A stretch of DNA of 64,000 bases from an uncultured Actinomycetota bacterium (GTDB lineage Bacteria > Actinomycetota > UBA4738 > HRBIN12), in assembly GCA_963778505.1 (NCBI GenBank), contig CAVZUH010000002.1, positions 472,674-536,673 on the forward strand, given 5' to 3'. Position 1 is the first letter of the stretch. Every line of letters begins with the position of its first letter. Under the pieces are notes generated by a model, which saw only the letters and a program-made list of their open reading frames with translations, was not told where the DNA came from and made no database searches. Both the position numbers and the translations under genes were made by a program. This document shows positions 2,312-29,500 of this stretch, in pieces.

Positions 2312-2314
2312 CGT

Positions 2315-3716: not shown

Positions 3717-3738
3717 AGGAAGCGTCGCCGCAAGGACG

Positions 3739-4014: not shown

Positions 4015-4053
4015 GGAAGACGCGCTGGATCCCCGCGGTGCGCACCGTCTCGG

Positions 4054-7225: not shown

Positions 7226-7249
7226 CGCGCCGGCGAGTCGCGGACACGG

Positions 7250-8349: not shown

Positions 8350-8372
8350 CGTGCCTGCTTCGAAAGGGTTCC

Positions 8373-8695: not shown

Positions 8696-8834
8696 AAGGG
8701 CGATTTCCGCGACTCGAAATGCCGTTCGAGTCACCTCCGATTGGTAGAATGTAGGGGTTCGTGCGACGGCCCCGCGCACGCCCCCGAGCTGCGATGCGTG
8801 GGGCGGCCTGCGCGGGGCACTGACGGGAGGACGA

Positions 8835-10767
<1,933 letters not shown>

Positions 10768-10774
10768 GAGGGGT

Positions 10775-13231
10775 ATGGCACAGGAGGGATTGTTCGCGGG
10801 CCGTGTCGAGCCCGTCCAGCTCGAGGAAGAGATCCAGCGGTCCTACCTCGACTACGCGATGTCCGTCATCGTCGGGCGAGCGCTGCCGGAGGTACGTGAC
10901 GGGCTGAAGCCGGTCCACCGCACGGATCCTCTGGTCGATGCTCGAGCAGGGCTTGCGCCCCGACCGACCCCACCGGAAGTCGGCCAACGTCGTGCGGCGG
11001 CGTGATGGCGAAGTACCACCCGCACGGCGACGCCCCGATCTACGACGCCCTCGTCCGGATGGCACAGGAGTTCTCCCTCCGGCATCCCTTGATCGACCCC
11101 CACGGGAACTTCGGATCCGTCGACGGCGACCCACCTGCTGCGTCGCGTTACACGGAGGCCCGCCTCGCGCCGATCGCGATGGAGCTGCTTCGCGACATCG
11201 ATGCCGAGACCGTCGACTTCGTGCCCAACTACGACGGGTACGAGCAGCAGCCGGTGGTCTTGCCGTCGCGCTTCCCCAACCTGCTGGTGAACGGCTCGGG
11301 CGGGATCGCCGTCGGGATGGCGACGAACATCCCTCCGCACAACCTCGGCGAGGTGATCGACGCGGTCGTCCACTACCTCGAGCATCCCGAGGCCGACGCC
11401 GAAGGACCTCATGAAGTTCGTCAAGGGACCTGACTTCCCGACGGGCGCGGTCATCATGGGACGCGACGGCATCCGCGACGCGTACGAGACGGGACGCGGT
11501 TCCATCAAGATCCGCGCGGTGAGCACCGTCGAGGAAGGATCGGCGGGCCGATGCACGCATCGTCGTGACGCGAGCTGCCGTACCAGGTGAACAAGGCGCG
11601 ACTGGCGGAGAAGATCGCCGATCTCGTCAAGTCCGGCAAGGTCAAGGACATCGCCGACCTGAAGGATCACTCGTCGGGCCGGGCTGGGATGCGACTCGTG
11701 ATCGACCTGAAGCGCGGCGCCAACCCCCAGGTCGTCCTGAACCAGCTCCACAAGCACACGCAGCTCCAGGAGTCCTTCGGCGTGATCATGCTGGCGCTCG
11801 TCGACGGCGTCCCTCGCACGCTGAATCTCGCCGAGATGATCGGCTACTACGTCGACCACCAGATCGACGTCGTCACCCGGCGGACCCGGTACGACCTGCG
11901 CAAGGCCGAGGAGCGCGACCACATCGTCCAGGGCCTCCTGATCGCGCTCGATCACCTGGACGAGGTCATCAAGGTCATCCGGGGCTCGCAGGACGCGGAG
12001 CAGGCGCGCACCAAGCTGATGTCGACGTTCAAGCTCTCGGAGATCCAGGCGAACCACATCTTGGACATGCCGCTCCGCCGGCTCACCAAGCTCGCACGCA
12101 CGGAGCTCGAGCAGGAGCACAAGGAGCTGCTCGCGAAGATCAAGTACCTGAAGGCCCTCCTGAAGGACCCGAAGAAGATCCGCGGCGTGATCAAGGACGA
12201 GATCCTGCGGATCAAGGAGAAGCACGGGAATCCCAGACGGACGCAGATCAAGGCGGATGAGGGCTCGTTCGACATCGAGGACCTGATCGCCGAGGAGGAC
12301 GTGGTCATCACCGTCAGCCGGGCCGGGCTACGTGAAGCGCGTGCCCGATCGACACGTTCCGACGGCAGGGCCAGAGGCGGCAAGGGAGTCCGCGGTGCGA
12401 CGTTGAAGGAAGAGGACGTGGTCGCCGACGTCTTCACGACGACGACGCACAACTGGCTCTTGTTCTTCAGCACCAAGGGGAAGGTGTACCGGGTGAAGGT
12501 GCACGAGGTGCCCGACTCGTCGCGGACGGCTCGCGGCCTCTACGCCGCCAATCTCCCAGGCGTCGCGATCGCGGGAGACGAGCGCGTCTCGGCGGTCCTT
12601 CACCTCAAGGAGTACGATCCGAAGCGCTTCCTGCTCTTCGCCACGAAGAAGGGCATGGTGAAGAAGACCCCGCTTTCCGAGTACGAGTCCGCCCGCACCG
12701 GCCTCGCGGCGATCAACCTGAAGCCCGGAGACGAGCTGATCGACGTGAAGCTCACCGACGGCAAGGACGAGGTCTTCCTCGTCTCGCGCAAGGGGCAGGC
12801 GATCCGGTTCAAGGAGCAGCTCGTGCGACCCGATGGGCCGTTCCACCGCGGGTGTGATCGGGATGCGGCTGGCCGAGGACGACGAGGTGATCTCCCTCAG
12901 CCTGGCCTCGGACGGTGAGGAGATGATCAGCGTCTCGCAGCAGGGCTACGGCAAGCGGTCGCCGCTCAAGGACTATCCCGTGAAGGGCCGCGGCGGGAAG
13001 GGAGTGATCGGCCACCAGATCACGAAGAAGACGGGGCTGCTCGCCGGTGCGTTCGTCGGGTCGAAGGAACAGGATCTGTTCGCGATCTCCTCCAGCGGGA
13101 TCGTGATCCGCGTGCCGGCCGGGGAGATCCGACGGGTCGGCCGATCCAGCCAGGGCGTCCGCACGATGCGCGTCGGGGAAGGCGCCCACGTCGTCGCGCT
13201 CGCGCCGGTGATCATGCAGATGGAGGAGTAG
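10775..13231 (+). CDS. gyrA: DNA gyrase subunit A, with about six frameshifts
   Basis: ..[33 protein letters not shown].., ..[20 protein letters not shown].., GyrA box region and C-terminal beta-pinwheel repeats (..[15 protein letters not shown].., ..GRGGKGVIG..). Confidence 0.95.
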
Positions 13232-13297
13232 GTCCTTCGACCGCGGGGGAACCTCAGGGCATCGCCGCGGAGTTACTGCGATGATGTCGGAACTCCC

Positions 13298-14234
13298 ATG
13301 AACATCGGACTCGGCTTCCTTGTCGAGGTCGTCGCGTTCGTGGCGGCCGCCTACGTCGTGGTGGCGCTGCGGCATCGCCTCACGCAGTTGACGACCGACC
13401 TCGTGCTCGCTTCGATCGGCTGCGTGATGGGAGCGGGCGCCCTGCTGTTCCAGCAGGACGTCAGTCTCGCCGGCGGCGTGCTCGCACCGCCGTTCGCGGC
13501 GTTCCTCTTGGTGGCGCACGTGCGCGCGTGGGATGCGGTCGGCGTGACCCTGCCCCGGTGGGTGAACATCCCCCCGCTCGGCCGTAGGCAGGCGTACGCT
13601 AGCGGCCCAGCCGAGTCCGGAACGATCGAGGAACCCATGCAGCGACCGACGATCCACGACGCAGCCCGAGCCGGCAGTCGCGGGTTCGACCCCGAGCCTG
13701 CGGGCGGGTTCGACCCCGAGCCCCTGCCCGGCGAGGAGGAGCTCGCGCCGCCGGTCGAGCCGCTCCCGCCCGAGCACGCCTGGCCGTCTACGATCATCAG
13801 GGCCCCCGCCCAGACGCGCCTCCCGCGGAGCGGGGTGCGCCGTACCCGCGTGGAGGTCAGGAGGGTCGGGCCGCTGTCGGTCCTGAAGTTCTCGCTGATC
13901 TTCTACTTCTGCGTGTTCCTGGTGATCTACCTGGCCGCTCGCGATCATCTGGGCGATCTTGTCCGCGAGCGGAGTGATCGACTCGCTGGAGGAGCTCCTC
14001 GGCACGATCTTCCCGTCCGGCGAGCGGCCTCGTCGCCGACGAAACAGATCAGCACCGGTCGCCGCGCCGCCGATCGAGATCGACACCGGGCAGGTCTTCA
14101 CGTGGCTGTTCTTCGCCGGATGCGTCGGAGTCGCGATCTGGTCGCTCATCAACGTGTTCGTGGCGGTGATGTACAACCTGATCAGCGACATCGTCGGCGG
14201 GGTGGAGGTCACGCTCGCCGACCGTCGTGACTGA
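13298..14234 (+). CDS. DUF3566-family transmembrane protein (Rv0007 equivalent), with one frameshift near 13950
   Basis: VRRVGPLSVLKFSLIFYFCVFLVIYLA.. and ..GQVFTWLFFAGCVGVAIWSLINVFVAVMYNLISDIVGGVEVTL. Contains a direct repeat GFDPEPAGGFDPEPLPG. Conserved position after gyrA. Confidence 0.8.
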
Positions 14235-14300
14235 CGCCCGCTCCTCGATTGACAGGGTTTCGGGCGCCTGACTACCCTGCGGCGAGGGGCTCGGGGCCCT

Positions 14301-14375
14301 CGGGCCTGTAGCTCAGCTCGGTTAGAGCGCTTCCCTGATAAGGAAGAGGTCGATGGTTCAAGTCCATCCAGGCCC
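14301..14375 (+). tRNA. tRNA-Ile (anticodon GAT)
   Basis: GGGCCTGTAGCTCAGCTCGGTTAGAGCGCTTCCCTGATAAGGAAG..GGTTCAAGTCCATCCAGGCCCA. Cloverleaf with a CTGATAA anticodon loop. Confidence 0.93.
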
Positions 14376-14421
14376 ACGCTTGGCCAGGCCCACGCCATCC
14401 ACCCGATAGGAGGCTGTTCCC

Positions 14422-14597
14422 ATGGGAGACGACACCGAGGGCACGGAGAAGAAGGGCGGCTTCTTCCGGAAGCTCCTGAAGCTCGCCTTCATCGCGAGCG
14501 ATCGTGGCCGCCGTCGTGCAGTTCATGAAGCGCCGCCGGGGCGAGGACCTTGACGACGTCGAATGGCAGGAGCTGCCGCCGCCGGCCGGCGGGTAGG
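14422..14597 (+). CDS. Small (about 58-aa) membrane protein of unknown function, apparently with one frameshift
   Basis: A strong AGGAGG Shine-Dalgarno sits 10 nt upstream of the ATG. MGDDTEGTEKKGGFFRKLLKLAFIAS / IVAAVVQFMKRRRGEDLDDVEWQELPPPAGG. One predicted TM helix. Confidence 0.45.
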
Positions 14598-14685
14598 CGC
14601 GACCTGCGTCTGCTGGAGAGCCCGCCAGCCGGCGGGCCTTTCCGTTTCTTCGAGGCCCATCCGAGGCCCCACTAGACTCGCGCGG

Positions 14686-15521
14686 GTGGACGAGTCCGGA
14701 CCGGCGTGGGACCTCGCCCGCGCGGCGGCCGTGGCGGCGAACGTGGAGCTCCGACCCCTGGACCGTCGTTCGATCAGTTCGATGACGCGCTCGGGATCAT
14801 GGTCGCCACGTGGGGCGCGTTCCAGCTGCCTCCTCGAGAGGTGATGACCGCCCTCGCGCACAGCGGCAACGTGCCGCTGGGTGCCTACGACGGCGATCGA
14901 CTGGTCGGATTCGTCCTCGGCTGGGCGGGGGTGGACGAGGCGGGACTCCACGTGCACTCTCACATGCTCGCCGCGCTGCCCGAGCGGCGCCATCGCGGTG
15001 TCGGGTACGCGCTGAAGCTCGGTCAGCGCGCGCAGGCGCTCGACCAGGACATCCACGTGGCCCGGTGGACGTTCGACCCGCTCGTGGCGCGGAACGCGTG
15101 GTTCAATCTCGGGAAGCTCGGAGCCGTCGCCGATCGGTTCGGGCGCGCGTTCTACGGGGAGATGACGGACGAGATCAACCGAGGCGATCGCACCGATCGC
15201 CTGGTGGTCCGGTGGGAGCTCGACCCGGAGCCCGGCGCCAGCGTCCATCGCCCGAAGGGCTCCCGACCGTGCTCGCGGCCGAGGGCGATCCCGATCGCTC
15301 CGGTCCCGGTCCAAGGGGTCGACGCCGGCGGCCGAGGGGGCCGTCGTCGAGGTGCCACGCGAACATCGCGGATCTTCGCCAGCGAGACGCCGATCTGGCG
15401 TCTCGCTGGCGCGCCGCCGCCGCGGATGCCCTCGAGTCGTGCTCTCGATGCCGGACTGATCGCGAGCGCCTTCGACAGGACGCGATCCGCCTACGTCCTG
15501 GTTCCGGAAGCGACGATATGA
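14686..15521 (+). CDS. GNAT-family acyltransferase-like protein, frameshifted
   Basis: ..RLVGFVLGWAGVDEAGLHVHSHMLAALPERRHRGVGYALKLGQRAQAL.. (GNAT motif A, R-x-x-G-x-G). Its stop overlaps the next gene's ATG (ATGA at 15518-15521). Confidence 0.6.
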
Positions 15522-16644
15522 GCCGCGTTCGGGCCGTCGAGCTGCTCATGGTCGAGCTGCCGCTGGTTCGCCCGTTCCGCACGAGCTTCGGAGAGATGAG
15601 CGACAAGCGCTGCGTCGCTCGTTCGGGTGGAGACCGACGATGCCGAGGGCTGGGGGGAGTGCGTCGCCGACTCGACGCCGGATTTCAGTGCCGAATTCAA
15701 CGAGGGGGCGTGGCTCGTGCTCCGTGACTTCCTCGCCCCCGCGCTGTTCCGGGCGGGGGACGTGGACGTCGACGGTGCGGAACGGGTGTTCGCCGAGGTT
15801 CGCGGCAATCCGATGGCGAAAGCGGCGCTGCTCGACGCCTTCGTCGACGCGGAGCTGCGGGCGACGCGGAGCGTCGCTGGCATCCTGGCTCGGCGCTGAG
15901 CGCGACCGTGTCGGAGTGCGGCGTGAGCATCGGGATCGCGCCATCGACCGACGCGCTCCTCGAGCAGGTGAAGGACTACCTGGAGCAGGGCTACCTCCGT
16001 ATCAAGCTCAAGATCGAACCCGGCATCGACGTCGATCGCGTTCGTGCCGTTCGCGCCGTCCACCCGAGCGTCCTCCTCTCCGTCGACGCGAACGCCGCGT
16101 ACTCGCCTGCCGACGCCGAGGTGTTCCGCTCGATGGACGATGCGGATCTCCTGATGATCGAGCAGCCCCTCCACCACGAGGACCTGCTCCGGCACGCGGA
16201 GCTGCAGGCGCTCTTGCGGACCGATCTCTGCCTCGACGAATCGATCCGCTCGGCCGCCGACGCGTCCGCCGCGCTCGAGCTCCTGCGCCTGTCGGATCGT
16301 GAACATCAAGCAGGGACGGGTCGGAGGTGTCCTCGAGGCGAAGACGGATCCATGACCTCTGCTTCGAACGGAGCATCCCCGTGTGGTGCGGAGGGATGCT
16401 CGAGACCGGGATCGGCCGTGCGTTGAACCTGGCTCTGGCGGCCCTGCCCGGCTTCTCCCTGCCCGGCGACACGAGCGCTTCGTCCCGGTACTTCCACGAC
16501 GACCTCACGGAACCGTTCGAGCTGGCGTCCGACGGCACGATGGCCTTCCCGTCGGGCGCCGGGATCGGCGTGACGCCGCTGCCGGATCGGCTCCGTGCGT
16601 GCGTGACGCGCCGGGAACTCCTCCTCCGCCAGGACAAAGAGTGA
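15518..16644 (+). CDS. Enolase-superfamily enzyme: o-succinylbenzoate synthase / N-succinylamino-acid racemase-like, with three or more frameshifts
   Basis: MSRVRAVELLMVELPLVRPFRTSFGE.., ..YLRIKLKIEPGIDVDRVRAVR..LSVDANAAYS..LLMIEQPL.., ..VNIKQGRVGG../..WCGGMLETGIGRALNLALAALP.. (MR/MLE-family catalytic regions). Confidence 0.8.
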
Positions 16645-16791
16645 CAAAATCACCGAGCCCGCTTGACGGCGGAACGAGGGGCACCGTATGGTTCGCGATG
16701 AGAGACCGCTGGAGCCCTCGGGTTCCGGCGGTTTCTCACTTTCCGGGCCCATTCCGGGTCCTCGCCGGCGGCCCTCACGCGCTCGGATCCG

Positions 16792-17450
16792 ATGAACCTC
16801 GTGCTCGTGCTCGTGCTTGCTTGTGTCGGGACGCTTCCGCAGGCGACGATAGGCCGACGCCAACAGTGCCCGGCGCTCGACCACCCGATGAAGAAACGTG
16901 TCATCAGAGCCGAGGAGTTCGAGGTCCTGGATGCTGCGGGACAGGTGCGGCTACGGATCGGCTTGTCGAACGACGATTCTCCGTTCTTCTCGATGCTGGA
17001 TCCTCACGGACAGGTTCGGGCTCGTTTCGGGCTCTCCTCGGACGGGTCCGCAGGCCTCGCGATCGGCGACGACAACGGCAAGGTCCGGGCGACGCTCGGG
17101 ATTGTCCACGCGACGGTTCGGCCAGCCTCGCGTTCGGGGACCGCAACGGGAAGATCCGCGCCAAGTTCGGACTGGCCTCGGACGCCTCGCCCACGCTGGG
17201 AGCTCACGTCGAGGGCGATGAGGTGAGCCACCGGTACACGCTGGCGGATCAGGGGTCGCCGACGCTCGGCCTCTACGACCGCGCCGGGCGGGTGCGGATC
17301 CGGCTGGGTCTCGCGGCCGAGGGGTTCCCGATCCTCCGGCTGCTCGACGCCGAGGGCGAGCTCCGTGCGCTGGTGGGTCTGGCGGATGATGGGAGCCCCT
17401 TGATCCAGTTCATGGACGAACGGAAGCAGCCGACCTGGACGATGCGATGA
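16792..17450 (+). CDS. Protein with six tandem repeats of about 23 aa (unknown family), possibly a lipoprotein; one frameshift near 17100
   Basis: Repeats LDAAGQVRLRIGLSNDDSPFFSM / LDPHGQVRARFGLSSDGSAGLAIG / DDNGKVRATLG.. / DRNGKIRAKFGLASDASPTLGAH / ..GRVRIRLGLAAEGFPILRL / LDAEGELRALVGLADDGSPLIQFM. Candidate signal/lipobox MNLVLVLVLAC, with an alternative start MKKRV at 16885. The stop overlaps the next gene's start (ATGA). Confidence 0.55.
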
Positions 17451-17933
17451 GCGGGTGGTGGACGGCAGCGTTCGTGGCCCAATGGATCCTCCTCGTGGTC
17501 CTGTGCGTCGTCGTCGTCGCGCTCGCCCGCCAGGTCGGCACGCTCCACCTTCGGCTCGGTCCCCGCGGGGCCCTCGAGATCGATACCGAAGGGCCCGCCG
17601 CTCGGTGAGGCGCTTCCCGCCGTCGACGCACGAGCGACCGACGGCACTTCGCTCGTGCTCGGAGGGCCGGGCGGGCGGCGTCTGGTCTTGTTCTCGTCGC
17701 CGACGTGCATCGTCTGTCGCGAGGTCGCTCCGGCGGTGCCGGCGGCCGCCGGCGCGGGGGATCTCGTGTCCCAGATCGTGCACGACCCGGATGCGGAGCG
17801 GGTGTTCGAGGTTCCCGGCACCCCGTTCGTGCTCGTGCTCGACGAGATGGGGATCGTCCGAGCCAAGGGCACCGTGAACAACCTCGAGCAGGTGGAGGGT
17901 CTGGTGGACACCGGCGGCTCGACGGATGCGTGA
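17447..17933 (+). CDS. MauD-like / TlpA-like membrane-anchored thiol-disulfide oxidoreductase, with one frameshift
   Basis: N-terminal TM helix MSGWWTAAFVAQWILLVVLCVVVVALA, then a thioredoxin fold with CxxC: LVLFSSPTCIVCREVAP...FEVPGTPFVLVLDEMGIVRAKG. Confidence 0.7.
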
Positions 17934-17945
17934 GGAGGGCGAGCG

Positions 17946-18486
17946 ATGGGCGAGCTGACGACGATGGAGCGCGCGCAGCGGGCGCTCGCGCAGCGAACGA
18001 GCCGACGCGGTTTCCTCGGACGGGTGGGGCGGGGGGTTGTCGCGCTCGCCGGTGGATCCCTCGTCGCCGACGGCGCTCGCCCCGGATCGGGCCGAGGCGT
18101 TCCACATCTGTGGCCACACCTGGACGACCGGGTCGTGTCCCCATCCGTTACGCGCCCCAGTCGCGGACCGACCGCTATCGGGTTCCCGGTCCACCCGACG
18201 TCGGGCTACCCGGTGGACGACCGGGGGAAGCTCTACCGCGATCGGGCGACCCAGGACGCGATCGAAGACCTGCCAGGAGAAGGTCCCCGAGGTCTACGCC
18301 TTCGTGAACGACGCCCGGTACGGCGGCGGCTGGACGCGGTGCTGCTCTGGGCGGCTGCGCCACATCCAGGATTGCTGCTCCCGGTCGACGATCCGGATCA
18401 ACGGGGACTACGCCGTGCGCGGCTACTGTCCCGCCGGGTTCAAGGTCTTCTGCATCACGTACCGGGAGCTCGCGAAGTCGTGTTGA
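17946..18486 (+). CDS. Tat-signal, Cys-rich (about 10 Cys) small secreted protein resembling the methylamine/amine dehydrogenase light chain; two or more frameshifts
   Basis: GGAGGG Shine-Dalgarno. Twin-arginine leader MERAQRALAQRTSRRGFLGRVGRGVVALAGGSLVA (compare the MauA leader SRRSFIGKLGTALAGAAL). Mature part ..HICGHTWTTGSCPHP.., ..GGGWTRCCSGRLRHIQDCCSRS..RGYCPAGFKVFCITYRELAKSC. Confidence 0.5.
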
Positions 18487-18566
18487 CCGACGCCGGGACG
18501 GCCGCGCTGACGGTCGCCGCGGCGATCGCCGGCTGGTCCGCGCTCTGGGGGCCATGAGGACTCTCG

Positions 18567-18970
18567 ATGGTGGAGACCATCAGCCCCGTCGTGTACGGGA
18601 CGCGGACGAGATGGGTGGGCGCGCTGGCGCTCCATGCCGCGGGGGCGACGGCGACCGCGGCCGCCTTCGGGGCCCTGGTCGCCGCCGTCGGCGCCCTCCT
18701 CGGCGCCCCCTGGGGCAGCGGCGGGCGCCGTCATCGTCGCGGGGGTCGCCTTGCTGTATCTCGTCCGTGAGCTGACGGGGATACGGATCCCCGTTCCGCA
18801 GCTTCGGCGACAGGTGCCCGACTGGTGGCGCACGTACTTCGGCCGTCCGCTCGCGGCGTTCCTCTACGGCGCCGGCCTCGGGGTCGGGTTCTTCACCTTC
18901 CTCGGCCACGGGACGCTCGTCGTCGTCACCGTCGGCGTGGCCGCGACCGGCAGGCCACTCCTGGGTGCGG
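18567..18970 (+). CDS. Polytopic integral membrane protein of unknown function, frameshifted; the boundary with the next gene is unclear
   Basis: Hydrophobic segments WVGALALHAAGATATAAAFGALVAAVGALLGAP, AAGAVIVAGVALLYLV, PLAAFLYGAGLGVGFFTFLGHGTLVVVTVGVAA. Confidence 0.45.
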
Positions 18971-19680
18971 TCGCTGATGGCCCCCTTCGGGCTCGCGAGA
19001 GGGCTCGCGCCGTTCGTTGCAGCGCGATCGAAGGGGCCCGAGGACGGCAGCCTCCTCGTCGATCGCCTGAGCTCGATGTCGGGGCGCCTTCGGAGTGCCC
19101 TGAACGCGGCGGCTCTGACGAGCGTGGCGGTTGCCGCCGCCGCCACCGCGTCACGCGCCGACGGCGGGTGGGGCGAGGCGGCGGCCGCGATCCTCGCGGT
19201 CGTGTTCGCGTGGGCGGCCGTCGCCAAGATAGCCGGGTGGCACCGGTGGCGCCGTGCGCTCTCGGCGCACGCTCTGCCACGGCGGCTGGAGAGCATAGCC
19301 ACGTGGGCGGTCCCGGCGGCGGAGGCGCTGGTACCGACACTCACGCTCCTGGGTCGCGAGCGGGCAGCGGCCGTCGCGGCGCTGGCTACGGTGGTGGTCT
19401 TCTCGATCGCCCTCCTCCGGCTGGCCGCTGCGCGACGGTGTCCGCGTCGCGTGCGGCTGCTTCGGACGTGCCTCGATCGACGTGCGGGTGGCGCTCTCTC
19501 GGAATCTGGCGCTCGCGGCCGCCGCGTTCGCTGTCCTTCGCGCTCGCTCCCCACGACCCGGCGCTCAGGCTGCCGCAAGCGAGCGACACGCTGCCCGCGC
19601 TGCTCCTCGCAGGAGCCCTGGCCACGGCGACGATCACGGCTTGGCGGACCGCCGTCTGGCTGGGAAGGGGCCGGGCGTGA
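18965..19680 (+). CDS. MauE-family (methylamine-utilisation MauE/DoxX-like) membrane protein, with two or more frameshifts
   Basis: ..AAAILAVVFAWAAVAKIAGWHRWRRALSAHALPRRLESIATWAVPAAEALVPTLTLLG..ALATVVVFSIALLRL.. and, in the adjacent frame, the family-typical CGCFG motif (RCGCFGRASIDVRVALSRNLALAAAAF). A C-terminal TM helix follows, with the stop at 19680. Confidence 0.6.
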
Positions 19681-20273
19681 GCCGGCCGTACGTGCTTCGC
19701 GCCTTCGCGCCCTTCGTGGCCGCGCTCCTGACCGTGGCACTCATCGCCGTGGTCGCCGGTGCGCACGACACCGACCTGCTCGATCCGAACGACACCGGCG
19801 GCAAGCTCGACGTGAGGCAAGTGCGCCTGGCGCATCACCCGCTCCCTCCGGTGTGGACCGTCGTCACATTCGCCGAGTGGAGGACCGCGGAGATGTGGGA
19901 TCGAGGCTACATCATGGTGCTGCTCGACACCTCAGGGGGAGAGCGTGCCGAGTACTACCTTCTCGTCCGATCGATACGCTCGGCGCTCCGTGGGTCGCTC
20001 TGGCGAGCCCGCATCCACGGGCCGGACTCCAACCTCGGCATCGTCCCGGTGAAACGGCTATCCCCCCGGAGCGTGTCGGTCCAGGTGCGTCTGTCGCGGC
20101 TCACGTTCGGCGCGAGCCGGTCCTTGTATCGGTGGTGGGTGCAAACGGTGTTCACGGGCCTGACCTGCCGGCGAACCTGCCAGGACCGCGCTCCCAACGG
20201 GGAGCCGGTCCTCCAGTGGAGACCGGGGATGTCTCCGTCCCCGTCCCCAACAGATGGTTCCTCGTCGCCATGA
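19680..20273 (+). CDS. Hypothetical exported or membrane-anchored protein
   Basis: The GTG start overlaps the upstream stop. N-terminal hydrophobic FAPFVAALLTVALIAVVAGA, then ..VTFAEWRTAEMWDRGYIMVLLDTSGGERAEYYLLV... No recognisable family. Confidence 0.4.
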   Translation, partial: SRPYVLRAFAPFVAALLTVALIAVVAGAHDTDLLDPNDTGGKLDVRQVRLAHHPLPPVWTVVTFAEWRTAEMWDRGYIMVLLDTSGGERAEYYLLVRSIRSALRGSLWRARIHGPDSNLGIVPVKRLSPRSVSVQVRLSRLTFGASRSLYRWWVQTVFTGLTCRRTCQDRAPNGEPVLQWRPGMSPSPSPTDGSSSP

Positions 20274-20429
20274 CCGAGGGCCGCTGCCCGACAGGACCGC
20301 ATCCGAGATCGGTCCCGGCTCATCGGAACCTTCGTCTTGCCCGTGGCGTCCGACCGGCAGGGATCCGGTCGTACGCGATCTTCCGACTGACGTACGAGCA
20401 CGGCTTTCGGCCGTAGAGGGGGGCACCCC

Positions 20430-23400
20430 GTGAGAAGGCGCCACGTCGCTGTCTGGATCGTCTGCACGCTCGTCATCGGACTGATAGGCCCTGCAGGTCA
20501 ACCTGCGCTCGCCGCGGAGGCGGCTACCAAGATCCAGTCAGGACTGGTGGATCGGCTGCGCTCCGGAACCCTGGAGTCGTTCGTGGTGGAATTCGCGGCA
20601 CGAGCCAACCTTTCGGCGGCGACCGCGATCGATGGGTGGGCGGGCCGGGGGCGCGCCGTGTATCGCGCCCTCACGACCACGGCCGAGCGATCGCAGTCGG
20701 CCGCGACGGCATTGATCCGCGCCACGCCCGGCGCGAAGGCCCATTCCTTCTGGCTCACCAACGTGCTCGTCCTCGAGGCCGGGGCCTCGCCGTCGCTCGC
20801 GCAGCGTCTCGCCGGGCTCCCGGGCGTGACCCGAGTCCGGGCTGAGAAGACCTTCCCGTTGATAGAGCCGGTCGAGCAACACGCCGTGGTGATCGCGGCG
20901 GATGAGCCGCCGCCCTGGGGCGTGACGAAGATCGGCGCGGACGAAGTGTGGGCCGACGGGATCCTAGGGAGTGGCGTCGTGGTGGCCAACATCGACACGG
21001 GCGTCGATTACGCGCACGAGGCTCTCGTGGGGCAGTATCGAGGCAACCTCGGCGGAACCTTCGATCACGACTATTCGTGGTGGGACCCGACCGGCATCTG
21101 CGGGGACGTGCCGTGCGACAACGCGCAACACGGCACCCACACGATGGGCACGATGGTGGGTGGTGATGGCCCCGGACCGTTCACTCCCGACATCGGCGTG
21201 GCGCCGGGGGCTTCCTGGATCGCCGCCAAGGGCTGCGAGGACGTCTTCTGCACCGAGTCCTCGCTGCTCTCATCGGGTGAGTTCATGGTGGCCCCGACGG
21301 ATCTGAACGGCGAGAATCCGGACCCCACGAAACGGCCGGATATCGTGAACAACTCGTGGGGTGGAGTGCCGGGCGACGGGTTCTACCTCGAAGTCGTCCA
21401 GGCGTGGCGCGCTGCCGGCATCATCCCCGTCTTCGCAGCAGGCAACGCCGGGCCCGACTGCGAGTCGGGTGGCTCGCCTGGTGACTATCTGGAGTCGTTC
21501 AGCGCCGGCGCGACGGATGAGAACGACGGGATCGCGGACTTCTCGAGCAGGGGGCCGTCCTCCTTCGGGAAGGTGATGCCAGACGTGTCGGCGCCCGGCG
21601 TCGACGTGGTCTCGAGCGTCCCGGGCGACGGGTACGACTCGTTCAGCGGCACATCGATGGCCGCGCCCCACACCACGGGCACACTGGCGCTGGTGCTGTC
21701 GGCAGAGCTCGCGCTGCGAGGCAACGTGGCCGGGTCCACGGACGCCGTGCGGTCGACGGCGCTCGACATCGCCGACGACACCTGCGGCGGAGATGCCGAT
21801 GGAGACCCCAACAACGTCTTCGGGGACGGCCGGATCGACGCGCTGGCCGCTGTGGCGCTCGTCGCCACGGGCGGCACGCTCGCGGGCGACGTCACCGATG
21901 TCTCCTCGAGCGATCCCATCGAAGGCGCCAGGATCGAGGCGAGCGCCGGGGGCCGGACGTTCTCGGCGACGACCGATGCCGCCGGCCACTTCGAGCTCTT
22001 CCTCGGTGCCGGCACCTATACCGTGACCGCGTCCGCCTTCGGCTACCAGTCCGCGCTGGCGACCGGGGTGGAGATCGAGACGGATCTCACGACCACCCAA
22101 GACTTCTTCCTCGCGCCGCTCCCGCGGCGTGACATCACCGGCACGGTGACGGCCGAGGAGGACGGGTCGCCGATCGAGGGTGCGGAGGTGCGCGCTCTGG
22201 GCACCCCCGTGGCCCCGGCGACGACCGATGCGAACGGTGACTACACCCTCACGCTGCCCATCGGCGAGTACACCATCCGTGTCGCGGCGGGCGGCTGCAC
22301 GAGCCACGAGGAATCGGAGGTGACCCTCACCCTTGCCGGCGTGACGCACGACGTCACCCTGTCGGCCAAGATCGATGATTTCGGACACGGCTGCCACCGG
22401 GTCGCGTTCGACTGGGTCGATGCGGCCTTGAACACCGCGATGTTCGGCGACCAAACCGTAGGGCGCCTGGCGATGCCGTTCCCATTCCCGTTCTACGGCG
22501 AGAGCTACGACGACGGTCTTCATCACCGACAACGGCTACCTGAGCTTCGAGATGCCGGAGTTCGCCGATCCCACGCCGATCGCGATCCCCTCGACGGGGA
22601 CGCCGAACGCCGCGATCTACGCGCTCTGGCAGAACCTCGTGATCGACGGCGCGAGCGCGGTGCGCTACGACACCGTCGGGACGAGTCCCGACAGGGCCTT
22701 CGTGGTCGAGTACGAACAGCTGAAGGTGGGCCCTCGCTTCGGCGATCTCGGCACCGAGGCGGAGCCCGCGGCGACCGGTCGCGTGGACGTCGAGGTGAAG
22801 CTCTGGGAGGACGGCACGATCGACATCCTCTACGGCGACAACCCGGCGAACCCGGGCGACGGGCGCGACGCCGGCATCGGGATCGAGAACGCAGACGGCA
22901 CGGACGCGCTGCAGTTCTCGTTCTCCGAGGACCTCGTGAGCGCGAACGTCGCATATCGATACGAGGTCGTGCCGAGTGGGATCGTGAGCGGCACCGTCAC
23001 CGATGCCAACGATGACCTGCCGATCGCGGGTGCCGTCGTGACGGCCGACCCGGGGGGCCGGACCGTCAGCACCGGTGCGGACGGGACCTACTCGCTCCGG
23101 GTGCGACCGGGCACGTACACCTTGACCTTCTCGGCGACCAACTACGTGACCCGTGAGGAAACGGCAGTCGTGGTGACCGATGGCGGTTCGCCCGTCGTCG
23201 ACGCCGCGCTCGCAGCGCCCGTGGCCCGTGTCGAACCCACGCAGATCGATGCCTCGGTCGACTTCGGCAACTCCTCGACGTCGACGATCACGATCTCGAA
23301 CGCGGGGACGTCGGATCTCACTTGGGAACTGCTCGAGCGGGAAGGGAGCCGCACCCCACCCGACCTGCCGCCGGTCCCGCTGGTGATCCGGGACCCGGTG

Positions 23401-26013
23401 TGGGCCCCCGCGAACGTCCCGGCTCGCGTCGAGCACCGTGCGCCCGGCGGCCCTGCCGCCCGGGGCCCTCGAAACGGTGATCGACGATCCGGACGACGAC
23501 TCGCTCGGGAACGTCGAGGTGACGGCGGTTCGAGGTGGGTCGGACAACGCGGAGATGTCCGTGGCGTTCGACTTCGACACCCAGACCCCGATGGACCTGC
23601 CGGTCGGCTATGTCTTCTTCGACACCGATCAGGATCCGGAGACGGGCTATCCGCCCGAAGAGTTCGCCGGGCTACCGGGTCAGGACATCGGCCTCGACTA
23701 CTTCGCCGACCTGTTCTCGATCCACGACAGCGAACCGGTCGTGTTCATCTGGGATGTGAACTTCGAGCTGGTCGCAGAGGTGCCGGCGTCGATCGACGGT
23801 CACACCGTGTCGTTCGCGGTGCCGCTGGCGGCGCTCGGCAACGACGACGGCAACGTCGACATCGCGTCCGTGATCGGCGAACTTCGAGGTGCCGTTGGAT
23901 TGGGCCCCGGACGAGGGCCACGGGACCATCCGGACCTTCACGGACGCGCCGTGGCTCGAGAACGTCGCTCGAGGCCGGAGTCGTCGCGCCCGGCGACACC
24001 GCCGAAGTGGAGGTGACCCTGGGCGGCGCCGACATACCTCCTGGCGACTACACGGGGTCGCTGGTCCTGCTCTCCGACGCGCCGAAGCAGCCTGCGCTGG
24101 AGATCGAAGTCACGCTCGCCGTGAGCTTGCCGGCCGACTGGGGAGCGGCGAGCGGTGCCGTCTTGGACGCGCACTCGTTCGAACCGATCGTCGGTGCCGT
24201 GATCACGGTGCACGCGACGTGGGAAGGCGGTCCCCTCGAGCTGTCGGACACCACCGACGGCGACGGGATGTGGTCGGTGATCGGGCCGGCCGGCACGTGG
24301 AGCGCCGATGTCTCGGCCGATGGCTACCTCGAAGCGTCCTCGGACGTGACGATCGTCGCCGACGGAACGGTCGAGGGGCAAGACGTCTTCGTCCATGCCG
24401 ACCAACCGCACGCGACGATCCGGCCCGGCGCCGTGCGGTTCACGCTGCTCCGCGGGCGGCAGGACGACCGCGTCCTTCGGCTCGGCAACGTGGACGGGCA
24501 CCGGGAGCTCACGTTCTCGGTCGGTGAGATCGCGGTCCCGCCACCGGGAAGTGGGGGAGAGCCACCGCCCGAGCCTCTCTCGATCCCCGCCGGGGCCAAC
24601 CCCGCGGCGATGGACTCGAGGGGCGCCGGCCACGCCTCCCCGGGCAGCGCCGGACTCACCAGCCGAAGGCGATGTGCTCGCTCAGTGGGAGACCGGGATG
24701 AGCGTGCCGTGGGGCGTGGGGTATCGCACGAGCCCGGACACGGTGACCATCTCCGATCCGGAGGATCTGATCGACGTCGAGTTCACGACGAGCGGCGATC
24801 GCACGGCCGAGTTCGCCACGCCGTGGGTGGGCGATTGGGCGGCGGACCTCGCGTGGGACGCCGGCCGAGGGCTCCTCTGGCACGTGAACGTCGGCGGCGA
24901 CAACGCGATCTACGGCGTCGACCCGGTCGACGGCTCGGTCGTCGAGACGGTCACCGGGCCGGGATGGACCGACGTGAGTCAGCGTGGCCTCGCCTTCGAT
25001 GAAGCCACCGACACCTTCTACATCGGTGGCTGGAACGAGGGGATCGTCTACCACGTGGCCGGGCCGTCCTGGCCGGAGCCAGGAGCAACGCTCGGCTCGT
25101 GCAGTCCCGACGACCCGAACATCTCCGGGCTCGCCTGGAACCCGGCGTTCCGGGTGCTCTGGGAGGCCACGAACTCGGACTTCGACGACATGTGGTTGAT
25201 CGACCCCGACACGTGCGAGACCCAAGGATGGGTGCCGCATCCGGACCCCGGGTTCAACGGAGCGGGGCTCGAGCTGGACACCGTCGGGAACCTGTGGACG
25301 GTGTCCCAGGGTTCGCAGTCGGCGTATCTGATCGAGTCGGGCCTTCCGACTTTCTCCGACGTCCCCTGGCTGGACGTGACCCCCGAGGCGGGTGTGGTGC
25401 AGGCGGGCGAGGAGACGAACATCACGGTCTCCGTCGACTCCACCGGCATGGCGCCGGGCACGTACGACGCGCTCGTCGGCGTCGTGACCGACGACCCCTC
25501 GCTCGGCGTCGCGACCGTTCGGGTCCGTCTGCTCGTCACGAGGTACGAGCGGTTCGTGAACGTCGGTGGCGGCCCGCTCTCGTTCCCGGATGGAACGACC
25601 TACGTCGGGCGATCGGGCCTTCGCGGAAGGCGCGTTCGGCTGGGTCGGCGACAGCACCGTGCGGACGACCGTCCACGGCATCCAGGGCACCCCGTACGGG
25701 AAGGCCTTCAAGTCCCAACGCGAGGGGATGAGCAGCTACCGGTTCACGGTCCCCAACGGCCGGTACCAGGTCCGTCTCGAGTTCGCGGAACTGGAGGCCC
25801 TGACGGAGTTCGAGCGGATCATGGACGTCTTCGGCGAAGGCGTCGCTTCGGATCGACAACCTTGATGTCGCGGGCCGCGTCGGCCGTTGGCATGCTCTCT
25901 CGCTGACGTTCAACGCACAGGTCAACGACGGCCTCTTGCTGGTCCGGTTCGCCCGCGCGTTGGGCGAGCCGCCGATCCTGAACTCGATGCGCGTGACCTG
26001 GCTGAGGTCCTGA
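20430..26013 (+). CDS. Giant secreted multidomain subtilisin-like (S8) serine protease locus: I9 propeptide, S8 catalytic domain, carboxypeptidase-regulatory-like/Ig-like repeats, a beta-propeller-like region and a C-terminal malectin-like domain. About seven frameshifts; possibly two genes.
   Basis: Signal peptide MRRRHVAVWIVCTLVIGLIGPAGQPALA. Catalytic triad motifs ANIDTGVDYAHEAL (Asp), HGTHTMGTMVG (His), GTSMAAPHTTGTLALV (Ser). Repeats like GTVTAEEDGSPIEGAEVRA / GTVTDANDDLPIAGAVVTA. C-terminal ..NGRYQVRLEFAELE..IDNLDVAGRV..NDGLLLVRF.. (malectin-like). The junctions are single-base insertions, for example TACGAC(G)ACGGTCTTC at about 22520. Confidence 0.8.
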
Positions 26014-26019
26014 GCGCGA

Positions 26020-26077
26020 GGGGCGGCGACGTCGGCTGGACTGGCCCTCAGGCGGTCTCGGCAGACGTCGCCGCCCC
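26020..26077 (+). terminator. GC-rich 14-bp perfect inverted repeat (hairpin) immediately downstream of the subtilase stop codon; candidate intrinsic terminator without a T-tract
   Basis: GGGGCGGCGACGTC at 26020-26033 pairs with GACGTCGCCGCCCC at 26064-26077, with a 30-nt loop. Confidence 0.4.
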
Positions 26078-26180
26078 GATCGCCTGACGGCCGTTTGAGG
26101 CGCCCAGGCCTGCTTCACGTCGTCCGCCCAGGTCGGACATCAGTCACTCCGGTCTCAGACGGTCGTTAGACTTCATGCGC

Positions 26181-26253
26181 GGGGACGTAGCTCAGCTGGT
26201 AGAGCACCTGCTTTGCAAGCAGGGGGTCGGCGGTTCGAGTCCGCTCGTCTCCA
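26181..26253 (+). tRNA. tRNA-Ala (anticodon TGC)
   Basis: GGGGACGTAGCTCAGCTGGTAGAGCACCTGCTTTGCAAGCAGGGGGTCGGCGGTTCGAGTCCGCTCGTCTCCA. Confidence 0.93.
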
Positions 26254-26537
26254 CTTACGTCGGTGCCACGATTCTGTTCAGTGCAGGCACCGCGACGCCC
26301 GCCGGCTCGACCAGTGGGTCACGGTCATCGGTCGGTTCGAGCGCGGAGGAGGTCACGTCCCGAAACTGGTTGCGACGGATTTTGACCTGGATCGCGCCCT
26401 CGGACGAGCCGTATGCGTGACCCGAGGAAGGGCGCCAAGCAGGAACGATCGCGGCCGAACGAGCACCGGCACGCGCGGAGCGTTCCGGCGCAAGCACGAG
26501 GTGTCCCCCGGACGGGGGCTCGGAAGCATCCCCTGCG

Positions 26538-29500
26538 ATGGCGCTCAGGTCGGCGTCTGGCCCTGCCGAAGGAAGGTTGTTGAGCAGGGGACGGTCTTTC
26601 CAACCGTTCCCCGAGGAGGAACGGGTGGCGTCCAAGAGGCAATTCTCCGTCGGCCGGCCGATCGTGTGGGTCGGTGTGCTCGTGCTGTCCGCGGGCCTCG
26701 CCGTGGGCGCGTGGTTCCTGAAGTCCACCGGCGTCGAAAGTGGCGTGAAAGCAGCGAACAAGGTCGCGGCGTCCACCGTCAAGAAGGACCTCGCCCCCTC
26801 ACTGACGGCGTCCGACGTTCGCGAGCCGATGTCGCTGGAGGGATCGGCCGAGCTCCAGCAGCTCGTCGAGAGCCGCATCCTCGACGAACACACCACGACC
26901 GTCCGGATCTGGACGGCGAACGGCACGCTCGTCTACTCCTCGACCGGTGAGCAGACCGGTACGCGGGGCGGGAACGAACGCGGGATCCGGCTCGCCACGA
27001 CCGGCGCGGGGAGGACGACCTCCATCGCGCCGGCCAGCGAGCTCGGGGTCCTCGACATCTACACGCCGCTCCGGCTCGGCGTGGACGACGGGTCGGTCGC
27101 AGCCGTCCAGTTGGTCGAGTCGTACGCGCCGATCGTCGCGGCCGCCGGCCAGCCGTGGGGCCTCGTGCGATCCGTCGCCGGCGGCCTCGCCGCGATCTCG
27201 CTCCTCATGGCCGTCGTCTCGTTCGCGTTCCTGCGAGCCGGACGGTCCGGCAAGCGCGAGGGCATGGGTTTCACTCCGTCGGGCGGCGCCGTGGATGAGG
27301 AGAAGCTCCGGCTCACGATCGGAGCGCGCGATGAGCAGCTCGTGCAGCTCCGCGAGCAGCTCCGGGAGCGGGAGACCGAGACGGTCGAGCGCGTTCGCGC
27401 CCTCGAGCTCCAGCTCCGGGAAGCCACCGCGAGAGCCCTCGAGGCCGAGACAGCTTCCGGCGACACCGCCGGGCTCTCGCAGGCCGCGCAGGAAGCGAAC
27501 CGTCGCGCCCAGGAACTGTTGGACCGGGCGGTGCGCGCCGAGAGCGAGCTGTCCTCGCTCCGCGAGAACCTGAGCGAAGCACCGGCGGGTGACGCGAAGG
27601 AGACCGAGCAACAGATCGCAGCTCTCGAGGAGCAGCTGCGAACCGTCGGGGCGGAGCGTGATCGTGCCAACGTCGATCTGCAGACCCTCGAGACGACGGC
27701 GCGAGACGCTGAAGCGCGAGCCGAGGAGTTCGCCAGGCTTGCCGAGGAGCTTCGGACCTCGATGGTTCAGCAGGACCAAGTCGAGAACGAGGCGACCGAG
27801 GAACTTCGGCGGACCGTCGAGGAGCTCAAGTCCGCGCTCGCCTACTCGGAGCGCGCACGCGACGAGGCGGAGGCCGTGTCGGCGGAGGCGTCGACCGCCC
27901 TCGCGTCGGCCGACGCCACGATCGCGAGTTTGCAAGAGGAGCGCGAGCTGCTCCTGGGCGACGTCGAGACCGATACGGGTGAGGCAGCAGTACGGCTCGT
28001 GCAGGCAGAGGCTCGCGTCACCGAGCTGGAGCGCTCGCTCGTGGAAGCGCTCGACCGGACGACCGAGCTCGGTCGGGAACGGGATGAAGCGTTGGCGCGA
28101 TCGGCGGGGCTGGAAGTTCGCTTCGACGAGGCGTCGAGCAAGGCGGTGGAGGCGGATGCCCGCTCCCGCTCGCTCGAAGCACGGATCCAGGAGATGGCGA
28201 AGAACGCCGGCAGCGCGACCGAGGGGCTGAAGGAGCGCCTCGGCGAACTGGAGGCCAGGGCCGCCGACGCGGAGAACCAGAGGAGCACGCTGGTGGCGCG
28301 CGCCGGGGAGGCGGAGGCCTCGGCGAAGGAGCTCAAGGTCCTGGTCGCGACCGCTGAGGCCCGTGAGGCCGAGATGGTGGAGCGACTGGAAGTGCGGGAT
28401 AACGAAGCCGCGCGTTCGCAGGCGAGTCTCGACGACGCGCGCCGCGAGCTCGAGGAGACCCGCGATCACCTCGAGGAAGCGCGGCGGGACGCCGCACGTT
28501 CAGCGGCCGAGATCGAGTCTCGAGAGGCCGCGGCCCGCGAAGAGGCGGAAGCACGCGAGTCAGCAGTCAGAGCCGAGGCAGGGGCCCGAGTCGCCGCCGC
28601 TCTCGCAGAGGCGGAGTCGCGAGTCGCCGCCGCGCTCGAAGAGGCAGAGTCTCGCGAAACCGCGGTGCGTGTCGAAGCCGAGGCACGCGAGAAGGCGGTC
28701 CGGGAACAGGTCGAAGCCCGTGCGCTAGCCGCGCGTGCTGAGCTCGAAGCTCAGGCGATCGAGGCTCGTTCCGAGCTGGAGGATCTCAAGGCTAGGTGGT
28801 CTGTGCTCGTGACGGCCAACCGGACCCTCGAGACGGAGATGTCCGAGCGCGATGGGACGATCGAGACGCTGGAGTCGAGGTTGGGCGAGCACCGCGGCGT
28901 GCTGGATGAGGCACGCTCGCGGCTGACCGCAGCGGAGGAGCGGGCGTCCGACCTCGAGCTCCGGCTCCTGGATGAGTCGGGCCAGATCACGGGGCTCCGA
29001 ACCGAGCTCGCCGAGGCGAACGACCAGGTCGCGCGCGCGGAGTCGCACATCGCCGAGCGCGACGCAGCCGTCGCCCGAGTTCAGGAGGAGCTCTCCGCGG
29101 TGCGGGATCAGATGTTGCTGAAGGAAGCCGCATCCGCCGTCGCAGTCGAGGAATTGGACGCGCTGAGGTCAGCCGTCGAGGGCCACGAGTCCCAGACCCG
29201 CCGGAAGGACGAGGAATTGCACGCGGTCCGCCAGGAGCTCGAAGCGAGTCGACAGGAGCTCGGCACGTTCCGGGAGGAGCTCTCCAAGCGGGAACAGATG
29301 GTCTCCGCCGGTGCAGAGGAATTGGAAGCGCTCAAGACCGCCGTGGAGGGCCACGAGTCCCAGACCCGCCTGAAGGAAGAGGAACTGCACGCGGTCCACC
29401 AGGAATTGCAAGCCGTCCGACAGGAGCTCGGAGTGGTCCGCGGGGAGCTCTCCCAGCGCGAGCAGCTGGTCTCCGCCGGCGCCGAGGAATTGGAGACGCT

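Follow-up and report, generated by a model that had tools for sequence, protein, structure and literature searches.

A stretch of 64,000 nucleotides from an uncultured Actinomycetota bacterium (contig CAVZUH010000002.1, positions 472,674 to 536,673; hereafter called the window) contains a group of genes for MauD- and MauE-like proteins next to a gene for a small cysteine-rich protein. Our analysis suggests, with a probability that we put at roughly 60%, that these genes constitute an operon for a dedicated extracytoplasmic oxidative-folding system serving one client, and that this system includes a MauE fusion bearing selenocysteine (Sec). The operon comprises the genes g1, g2, g3, g4/5 and g6 (Table 1), g3 encoding the presumed client, whose precursor has a signal for twin-arginine translocation (Tat). 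A first-pass annotation had already recognized here a dedicated cassette of MauD-like, MauE and Tat-exported cysteine-rich proteins, and this view was upheld by the conservation of the unit in all of 80 loci compared. It had missed the in-frame UGA, probably a Sec codon, which we found in the gene of the membrane protein.

On the + strand between 16.8 and 20.3 kb, the frame with the highest G+C content at third codon positions (GC3) switches approximately every 300 nt. In a three-frame reading, recognizable proteins run on across each switch, and GC3 is high on either side of every shift. The closest relative found was a long-read metagenome-assembled genome (MAG; locus L026) with 91-92% nucleotide identity to the window. 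Compared to L026, the cassette exhibited 12 single-base insertions and no deletions. When the 12 bases were deleted, five intact open reading frames (ORFs) were obtained, the lengths of which are exactly those in relatives. The 18.2-kb stretch collinear with L026 (window 7900-26100) carries 76 single-base insertions, on average one in about 240 nt and mostly of G or C. Only 20 of the 76 adjoin an identical base, and the insertions also interrupt the essential genes gyrB and gyrA and an S8 protease gene. Because removal of the 12 bases restores the ORF lengths of the relatives and insertions recur at about one per 240 nt in gyrB and gyrA, we concluded that the frameshifts of the window are sequencing or assembly errors and not biology; they should not be taken as real. 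The 12 frame disruptions within 3.4 kb of raw sequence might also be ascribed to a decaying pseudogene cluster with genuine frameshifts. This is extremely improbable in view of the like insertions in essential genes, the high GC3 on both sides of each shift, the exact ORF lengths gained by single-base removal, and the fact that the cassette is intact in all 80 relatives. The window, whose G+C content is about 69%, looks like an unpolished long-read assembly, and any frameshift in it is to be distrusted.

In the GTDB set, the g3 family was detected in 201 genomes at species level, from which 80 loci were fetched for comparison. Only ±10 kb (about 20 kb) per related genome were examined, and the synteny of flanking genes was counted over the 44 full-length loci. 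All 80 loci returned belong to MAGs, nearly all labelled Actinomycetota, which is consistent with the actinobacterial host named earlier. The five genes have the same order and spacing in 80/80 loci wherever the contig extends. Thus, the region is a five-gene, co-directional and translationally coupled operon on the + strand. The g1/g2 junction is an ATGA at 17447-17450, g2 and g3 overlap by 13 nt, the GTG start of g4/5 at 18480 overlaps the g3 stop, and the junction of g4/5 and g6 is a GTGA at 19677-19680. Four of four junctions overlap when g4/5 starts at this GTG, 87 nt upstream of the called ATG at 18567, while the annotated ATG would leave one gap of 81 nt in an otherwise overlapping operon. 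The first-pass annotation had correctly described a co-directional unit with coupled junctions at 17447-17450 and 19680. Its count of five or six genes has to be settled at five, since the polytopic membrane protein and MauE, listed there as two genes, form a single gene in all relatives (369-380 aa).

Table 1. Positions of the features of the cassette in the window.
Feature	Position	Strand	Remarks
Promoter-like site TTGACG-18-TATGGT	16663..16692	+	Upstream of g1; weak consensus match only; 1 site against 0.1 expected
g1, 23-residue repeat protein, 186 aa	16885..17450	+	ORF after repair
g2, MauD-like thioredoxin, 169 aa	17447..17958	+	ORF after repair
g3, Tat-signal 10-Cys protein, 178 aa	17946..18486	+	ORF after repair
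g4/5, fusion of candidate Sec membrane domain and MauE, ~396 codons	18480..19680	+	Called from 18567 = 370 aa
In-frame TGA, proposed Sec codon, residue 26	18555..18557	+	Motif W-G-P-U-G-L-S-M-V-E-T
Hairpin H1, GAUGGU-GGAG-ACCAUC	18566..18581	+	6-bp stem; loop starts with G; begins 8 nt after UGA
Hairpin H2, CCCGU-CGUGU-ACGGG	18585..18599	+	~30-35 nt after UGA; loop GUC or CGUGU
g6, anchored extracytoplasmic protein, 198 aa	19677..20273	+	GTG start overlapping g4/5 stop
Inserted bases relative to L026 (approximate in g1 and g2)	17095, 17111 (g1); 17589, 17916 (g2); 18069, 18150, 18177, 18254 (g3); 18718, 18974, 19428, 19531 (g4/5)		12 single-base insertions

The product of g4/5 consists of a first transmembrane segment (TM1), the site of the candidate Sec residue, a polytopic domain that is novel and not recognized by Pfam, and a MauE/DoxX domain. 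No NCBIfam or Pfam model matches the domain with the putative Sec. Upstream of the annotated ATG, the frame of the window reads VLTDAGTAALTVAAAIAGWSALWGP-TGA-GLSMVETISP. The TGA is invariant in 73 distinct sequences. Its flanks (GGN CCN TGA GGN [C/T/A]TN TCG) vary at third positions, and the second position (T) of the Leu/Phe/Met codon after the TGA is invariant. In 77 of the 80 loci, the segment upstream of the TGA is in frame and free of stop codons, and its indels are multiples of 3, giving nine lengths from 66 to 150 nt. A start codon is found at the g3 junction in 80/80 loci (GTG 71, ATG 8, TTG 1, CTG 0). All ten paralogues with a continuous ORF possess Cys at the TGA position, within the motif WSPCG[FLQ][SA]M (Cys forms with this motif: L085, L087, L088, L089, P0397-P0400, P0402-P0405 and P0410). 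The motif shared by both forms is W[GS]P[U/C]G[LF]SM. The membrane protein of the divergent subfamily starts earlier, with ...LTGAWSPCGFSMVETIGP. A TGA form also occurs inside the second subfamily, where L086 reads GAWSP-TGA-GFSMVETITP as against GAWSPCGLSMVETIGP in L087 and L088. Because the TGA is invariant, is surrounded by coding sequence on both sides, is replaced by Cys in paralogues and is followed by conserved hairpins, it most probably encodes Sec, as far as can be judged from comparison of sequences. This points to a candidate new selenoprotein family.

The two hairpins downstream of the UGA were compared between TGA and Cys forms. The stem of H1, in which the AUG of the called start resides, is invariant in 72 distinct sequences and has a free energy of -7.0 to -8.5 kcal/mol. 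Its synonymous sites are frozen (TCG 73/73, ACC 72/72). In each of the three Cys forms that share the SMVETI peptide, ACG replaces ACC and H1 is broken; in other Cys forms this peptide varies freely. H2, which extends up to 8 bp in other clades, has frozen synonymous sites as well (CCC and GGG, each 72/73), whereas adjacent four-fold codons display a third-position entropy of 1.2-1.9 bits. In two of its pairs both partners have changed, CG being replaced by GC in 22 sequences and by UA in two. L086 retains H2, rebuilt from other codons. In most loci, H2 conforms to all four published constraints on bacterial selenocysteine insertion sequences (SECIS; PMC13188914) and has a free energy of -13 to -15.6 kcal/mol, but just -7.0 kcal/mol in the clade of the window. 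H1 conforms to the same constraints save for its spacing of 14 nt.

Use of Sec occurs in Actinobacteria (PMC1794560). A 2026 inventory comprises 119 prokaryotic selenoprotein families (PMC13188914), among which there is neither a fusion with MauE/DoxX nor a protein with the motif WGP-U-G-L-SM. The thiol-disulfide and membrane selenoproteins of this inventory (DsbA-like, DsbG-like, UGC-TlpA, the rhodanese/DsbD-fusion TsoB, YeeE/YedE and the SO_0444 transporter) resemble the putative Sec form of g4/5: Sec takes the place of a redox Cys involved in thiol-disulfide chemistry, homologues with Cys are frequent, and downstream of the UGA lies a hairpin of the bacterial SECIS type. In the literature, we found nothing relevant on a MauE selenoprotein or on selenoproteins of Thermoleophilia. 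A likeness to the DsbD/CcdA superfamily, which has Pro-Cys motifs within transmembrane helices, is a lead only: there, too, a polytopic protein carries a Pro-Cys(Sec) dipeptide at a transmembrane helix and performs thiol-disulfide chemistry in the envelope.

Several observations weigh against Sec. No selA, selB, selC (tRNA-Sec) or selD was found in 1.34 Mb (window and loci), to which ARAGORN, Rfam and tblastn with E. coli SelD as query were applied; with about 20 kb per genome, this result is uninformative. The folding energy after the UGA is no better than that of shuffled sequences in this GC-rich context (z -0.49). H1 never varies and hence discloses no covariation, while the covariation of H2 is largely one clade-level event. 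Only three DNA sequences of Cys forms with the same peptide were available for the comparison of H1. Moreover, H1 sequesters the AUG, which suits termination and reinitiation after a 25-aa upstream ORF equally well. According to this alternative there is no Sec, and the TGA is the true stop of a conserved 25-aa micropeptide with a single transmembrane (TM) segment, followed by re-initiation at the AUG 9 nt downstream. TGAGG would provide a Shine-Dalgarno-like GAGG, 7-8 nt upstream of the AUG, H1 would enforce strict translational coupling, and an ancestral protein would have been split at its Cys codon. All gene callers do start the protein at AUG 18567. We nevertheless consider such a split rather unlikely. 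The stop resides exactly at the sole Cys that is invariant in the 10 continuous-ORF paralogues, so that a split would discard just this residue. The three codons from TGA to ATG vary in the manner of codons, their translation, G-[LF]-S, agrees with that of the Cys forms, and the spacing is invariant. H2, located farther downstream, is conserved at synonymous sites and exhibits compensatory changes, which an initiation signal would not need, and two divergent subfamilies have this TGA in common.

The sister subfamily with Cys forms has a cassette of three genes, which encode a MauE-MauD fusion (287-295 aa, bearing CxxC and a CAC motif), a small Tat-signal Cys-rich protein (192-208 aa) and a stand-alone Cys membrane protein (219-485 aa, sometimes with a C-terminal beta-propeller-like domain). 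MauE is fused to the putative Sec membrane domain in the subfamily of the window, where MauD is separate, and to MauD in the Cys-form subfamily. Such an exchange of fusion partners is an argument for joint action of MauE, MauD and the Sec/Cys domain on the small protein. In one locus (L085:6215-7672), the Cys membrane domain is fused to an extracytoplasmic C-terminal domain of about 250 aa with a weak match to a beta-propeller repeat (TIGR04275, E 7.6e-5), and P0394 and P0405 have similar C-terminal extensions. The heavy chain of methylamine dehydrogenase (MADH) is a beta-propeller.

Both Mau-type proteins named by the first-pass annotation, a membrane-anchored MauD-like thioredoxin with CIVC and a MauE with CGCFG, were recovered by searches with the respective family models. 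The product of g2 has an N-terminal TM segment (WWTAAFVAQWILLVVLCVVVVAL) and the motif CIVC (17706-17717). It matches TIGR02661 (MauD) with 71.9 bits (E 4.6e-20) over residues 7-108. Since this score is significant yet below the equivalog cut-off of 188.6, g2 is classified by its profile match as MauD-like and not as a MauD equivalog. Thioredoxin matches in Pfam were weak and stronger in the fused form of L085. In the raw sequence, the second of the two inserted bases leads to early termination at 17933; the repaired protein has the same length as in L001. The MauE domain of g4/5 matches PF07291 with 65.5-67.3 bits (gathering score 27) and has a helical bundle of the DoxX type. Its CGC is encoded at 19452-19460, and C295-G-C297-F298-G299, K220 and E252 are invariant or nearly so in 50 homologues. 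According to a recent preprint (Gonzalez et al. 2026, 10.64898/2026.03.05.709764), MauE is a DsbB-like disulfide generator, whose active-site signature is a CXC followed by F-G together with a conserved Lys (TM1) and Glu (TM2). In its dataset of 20,704 bacterial species, MauA is present in only 10.2% of those bearing MauE. Because MauE usually occurs without MauA, an orphan MauE is no longer surprising in itself. The proteins described there and the one studied here share the CGC-F-G loop with Lys and Glu, the lack of MauA and a thioredoxin-fold partner, which is sometimes fused; the MauE-thioredoxin fusion corresponds to our Cys-form subfamily. Unlike the stand-alone generalist of the preprint, MauE here belongs to a one-client operon and is fused to a candidate Sec-bearing membrane domain. 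Neither such a fusion nor a link to selenium is reported in the abstract and Results of that work.

In the precursor of the presumed client g3, a leader some 50 aa long precedes a mature domain of roughly 128 aa. The twin-arginine motif SRRGFLG is encoded at 18000-18020, and S-R-R-x-F-L-G is invariant. The generic Tat model TIGR01409 was matched with 17.0-17.2 bits (E 0.0048), above its cut-off of 16.7. Among 120 homologues, eight Cys are invariant and two are conserved by more than 90%. Thus, both the Tat signal and the number of about 10 Cys reported before are confirmed. The mature part contains the motifs HICGH..SCPHP, GGGW[TS]RCC, DCCS, RINGD, GYC, VFCI and a C-terminal Cys, as well as one invariant Trp (W128, P0002 numbering). 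The invariant HxCGH..CPHP and GGGWxRCC suggest, by their sequence, a metal site or a modified residue. In the AlphaFold2 (AF2) model, the predicted local distance difference test (pLDDT) of the mature part is 85-93. The family has at least 672 members, nearly all of about 178 aa. No member carries a Pfam domain or a name that indicates a function, a few being designated merely as Tat-signal proteins. A profile search of 1.84 billion representatives gave 224 matches of the g3 family, which is compact, and among the 150 matches listed of the 224 no bridge to MauA was seen. Most of the partial matches proved to be mis-framed ORFs. Many database matches of the family (such as P0147, P0158, P0190 and P0248) are of this kind, being long, rich in Arg and Ala and read in a wrong frame through MauD, g3 and the membrane gene. 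Such chimeric ORFs from error-prone high-GC assemblies contaminate family statistics that are based on called proteins.

The best NCBIfam match of g3 is TIGR02659 (MauA), which is restricted to residues 6-52 and scores 22.4 bits (E 9.2e-5) as against a cut-off of 196.85. Alignment by hhalign of g3 and the precursor of 3c75_L covered 33 columns of the leader with 52% identity (probability 88.9%, E 2.4e-6). From this likeness, the predicted leader is a long twin-arginine leader of the MauA type (xRTSRRGxxGRxG..LAG). The mature part did not match PF02975 at E<=1, nor TIGR02659 outside of the leader. A search of the PDB with the g3 family profile gave nothing at E<=10, hhalign of the mature parts of g3 and the MADH light chain a probability of 0.35%, and Foldseek of the g3 model nothing in the PDB. 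An alignment made by eye (W128 with Trp57 of tryptophan tryptophylquinone (TTQ), DCC with DCC, and Y159-C with Trp108-C) was dropped, as hhalign of the mature parts was not significant. MauA has 12 Cys in six disulfides, and TTQ requires two Trp. With 10 Cys instead of 12 and one invariant Trp instead of two, g3 does not qualify as a member of the TTQ light-chain family. Of the notion that the small protein is light-chain-like, the part concerning the leader is retained, while the part concerning the mature domain is not, so that a reading of g3 as a MauA homologue is weak. A distant common ancestry of both proteins is possible but unproven.

Could the locus still specify a genuine amine dehydrogenase of the TTQ type, with g3 as a divergent MauA and with MauB, MauG and the electron acceptor encoded elsewhere? 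As in the mauA-mauD-mauE genes of proteobacteria (Paracoccus, Methylobacterium), a CXC MauE and a TM-anchored MauD-type thioredoxin adjoin a small Cys-rich protein, the leaders are alike, and one Trp of the mature domain is invariant. However, besides the dissimilarity of the mature proteins, MauB, MauG, MauC or other mau genes were not found in the scanned regions. In the GC3-supported coding fragments at 32-64 kb, the Pfam families of MauB, MauG and amicyanin had no match; MauB, MauG and cupredoxin were likewise missing from the scanned ORFs of L026 (about window 8.7-24.5 kb) and within ±10 kb of L001 and L002. Profile scans did not extend to 1-8.7 kb, about 24.5-32.4 kb and the gaps between fragments; 1-8 and 26.4-32.6 kb were read by eye. 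The previous statement that MauB, MauG and amicyanin are lacking in all 64 kb thus holds for the fragments of 32-64 kb and, as judged from the ORFs of L026, for about 8.7-24.5 kb. In contrast to the mau clusters, the host is an actinobacterium, MauE is fused to a Sec/Cys membrane domain, and there are two extra conserved genes, g1 and g6. The locus also has a fixed, origin-proximal housekeeping position in the core genome next to gyrBA (gyrA near the cassette in 40/44 full-length loci), and the low share of MauA among MauE-bearing species given in the preprint points in the same direction. We therefore regard a TTQ enzyme as very unlikely. Quite improbable, too, is a variant in which g3 is a descendant of an amine-dehydrogenase light chain with a new protein-derived cofactor or cross-link around the invariant GGGW-x-R-CC/DCC/GYC cluster, formed without MauG and matured by a selenium-containing MauE-fused membrane oxidoreductase. 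If true, the core genes of a large clade of soil Actinomycetota would specify a quinoprotein-like system of a new type, the maturase of which is a selenoprotein.

In Streptomyces, mauE occurs in three candidate families of peptides made by ribosomes and modified after translation (RiPPs), in one of them together with mauD, and the precursors have at least 8 Cys (Kloosterman et al. 2020, PMC7794033). There as here, an actinobacterial orphan mauE, accompanied or not by mauD, adjoins a small Cys-rich ORF, and further mau genes are lacking. Those clusters were found as accessory biosynthetic gene clusters, whereas the present cassette is a syntenic core locus that encodes a 128-aa Tat-exported domain and a candidate Sec membrane protein. 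By analogy, g3 might be a secreted disulfide-knotted product (for instance a bacteriocin, a peptide resembling RiPPs, or a protein for signalling or metal binding) that is tailored or folded by MauD and MauE, and HxCGH..CPHP could bind a metal. This explanation overlaps with the folding system proposed above and differs only in what the client does. It appears unlikely, since the mature domain, with 128 aa and a globular fold modelled confidently by AF2, would be big for a RiPP and the export is by Tat and not by a leader-peptidase/ABC system. Furthermore, a single-copy, syntenic core locus near gyrBA is unlike accessory biosynthetic clusters, and the conserved unit is devoid of an immunity or transporter gene.

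Taken as an oxidative-folding system, the operon might function as follows. The client g3 would be exported by way of its MauA-type Tat leader, which is probably cleaved after AEA. As expected from its family, g2 with CIVC may then oxidise the 10 Cys of g3 to disulfides, and a quinone-linked MauE would re-oxidise g2 via its CGC. MauE is fused to a polytopic domain not described so far, whose sole redox-type residue, at the end of TM1, is apparently UGA-encoded in this subfamily and Cys in the sister subfamily. Because domain shuffling has joined MauE either to the Sec domain or to MauD, the Sec/Cys residue may be a third, highly nucleophilic redox centre that cooperates with MauE and MauD as a relay or isomerase. 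This scheme has to reckon with some reservations. We infer the action of MauD and MauE on g3 from their families. Activity was demonstrated for two MauE proteins, both from other phyla and in the preprint mentioned above. The putative Sec residue at the end of TM1 may lie either inside or outside of the membrane.

The gene g1 is the most conserved of the cassette (57-96% identity across the 80 loci). Its product contains about eight exact 23-residue repeats (DGSPxLxLxDxxGKVRAxLGL), and autocorrelation peaks at lags 23 and 46 only, in agreement with the tandem repeat noticed previously. The unit does not begin at 16792, as had been assumed, but at 16885 (MKKRV), where the homologues begin as well; a start at ATG 16792 with an 'LVLAC' lipobox is not conserved and was discarded. 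The protein has no signal peptide and no Pfam or NCBIfam match. Its family profile matches engineered OspA hairpin-repeat proteins (E 1.4e-6), whose 23-residue beta-hairpin unit aligns to the unit of g1. Each repeat is thus probably one beta-hairpin of a single-layer beta-sheet. In contrast to OspA, g1 is natural, has about eight repeats, is apparently cytoplasmic, lacks a lipoprotein signal and resides in a redox operon. That g1 replaces the heavy chain as a beta-propeller was rejected, as the repeat fits single-layer beta-hairpin units and a signal peptide is missing. The product of the last gene, g6, earlier described as a secreted protein, is anchored by an N-terminal TM segment. It has a conserved domain outside the cytoplasm (DPNDT..WDRG..LDT..YRW) with a CxxxC pair, and its tail is rich in Pro, Ser and Thr. 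It is present with 35-83% identity in all loci extending far enough, and no Pfam, NCBIfam or PDB match (PDB by phmmer) was obtained. The apparently cytoplasmic g1 and the anchored g6 are conserved accessory or partner proteins.

Regarding the neighbourhood, the cassette is preceded by genes for a GNAT acetyltransferase and an MR_MLE (enolase-superfamily) protein (window 14706-16644; L001:5133-8812), and an MR_MLE-family gene lies upstream in 44/44 full-length loci. A DUF3352 gene lies between these two genes and g1 in some clades (8/44 loci at E<1e-20), not in the window. Downstream, an S8 subtilase with four CarboxypepD_reg-like domains is encoded at 20430 to about 24500 on the + strand (1365 aa and intact in L026, fragmented here). 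The first-pass annotation had noted this giant protease directly after the cassette, and it was considered here as a part of the system. Because it follows the cassette in just five of the 44 full-length loci, it is a clade-specific neighbour and was ruled out as a component.

Six-frame fragments read by eye identify window 1-14400 as the replication-origin region of an actinobacterial chromosome, beginning with parA, yidC, rnpA, dnaA, dnaN and recF; dnaA is roughly 10 kb away from the cassette. Pfam matches on L026 confirmed gyrB, gyrA and a gene for a DUF3566 protein. There are two tRNA genes in the window, tRNA-Ile (14302-14377) and tRNA-Ala (26181-26254). The latter is followed by a Glu/Ala/Arg-rich coiled-coil protein of more than 980 aa in one open frame (26400-30150, + strand), and at 28-30 kb the GC skew (0.127) and AT skew (0.264) are unusually high. 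Two contigs with the cassette are labelled Gemmatimonadales and 'Candidatus Velamenicoccus archaeovorus' (L034, L039). In synteny, these two cassettes agree with those of the Actinomycetota, to which they are 65-68% identical, and the labels probably reflect mis-binning or mislabelling rather than transfer.

The client family g3, the strictly conserved five-gene operon at a core position, the alternative fusions and the probable selenoprotein appear to be new. On the practical side, the frameshifts of the window, being assembly errors, should not be read as biology. Irrespective of selenium, a client family of more than 670 sequences without functional annotation has been defined, and the cassette is a natural three-way experiment on how the MauE pathway passes oxidising equivalents to its clients. 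As the MauA-like leader of g3 suggests, it may be by the leader that substrates are recognised in MauD/MauE systems. If the UGA is indeed translated as Sec, g4/5 would represent a new selenoprotein family outside of the 119 catalogued in 2026, and more than 1000 database entries would be misannotated as N-terminally truncated 'MauE/DoxX'. Selenium would then be tied to a MauE-type disulfide-generating machine, a link missing from the 2026 inventory and from the abstract and Results of the MauE preprint, and a widespread clade of uncultured soil Actinomycetota would use selenocysteine in the cell envelope.

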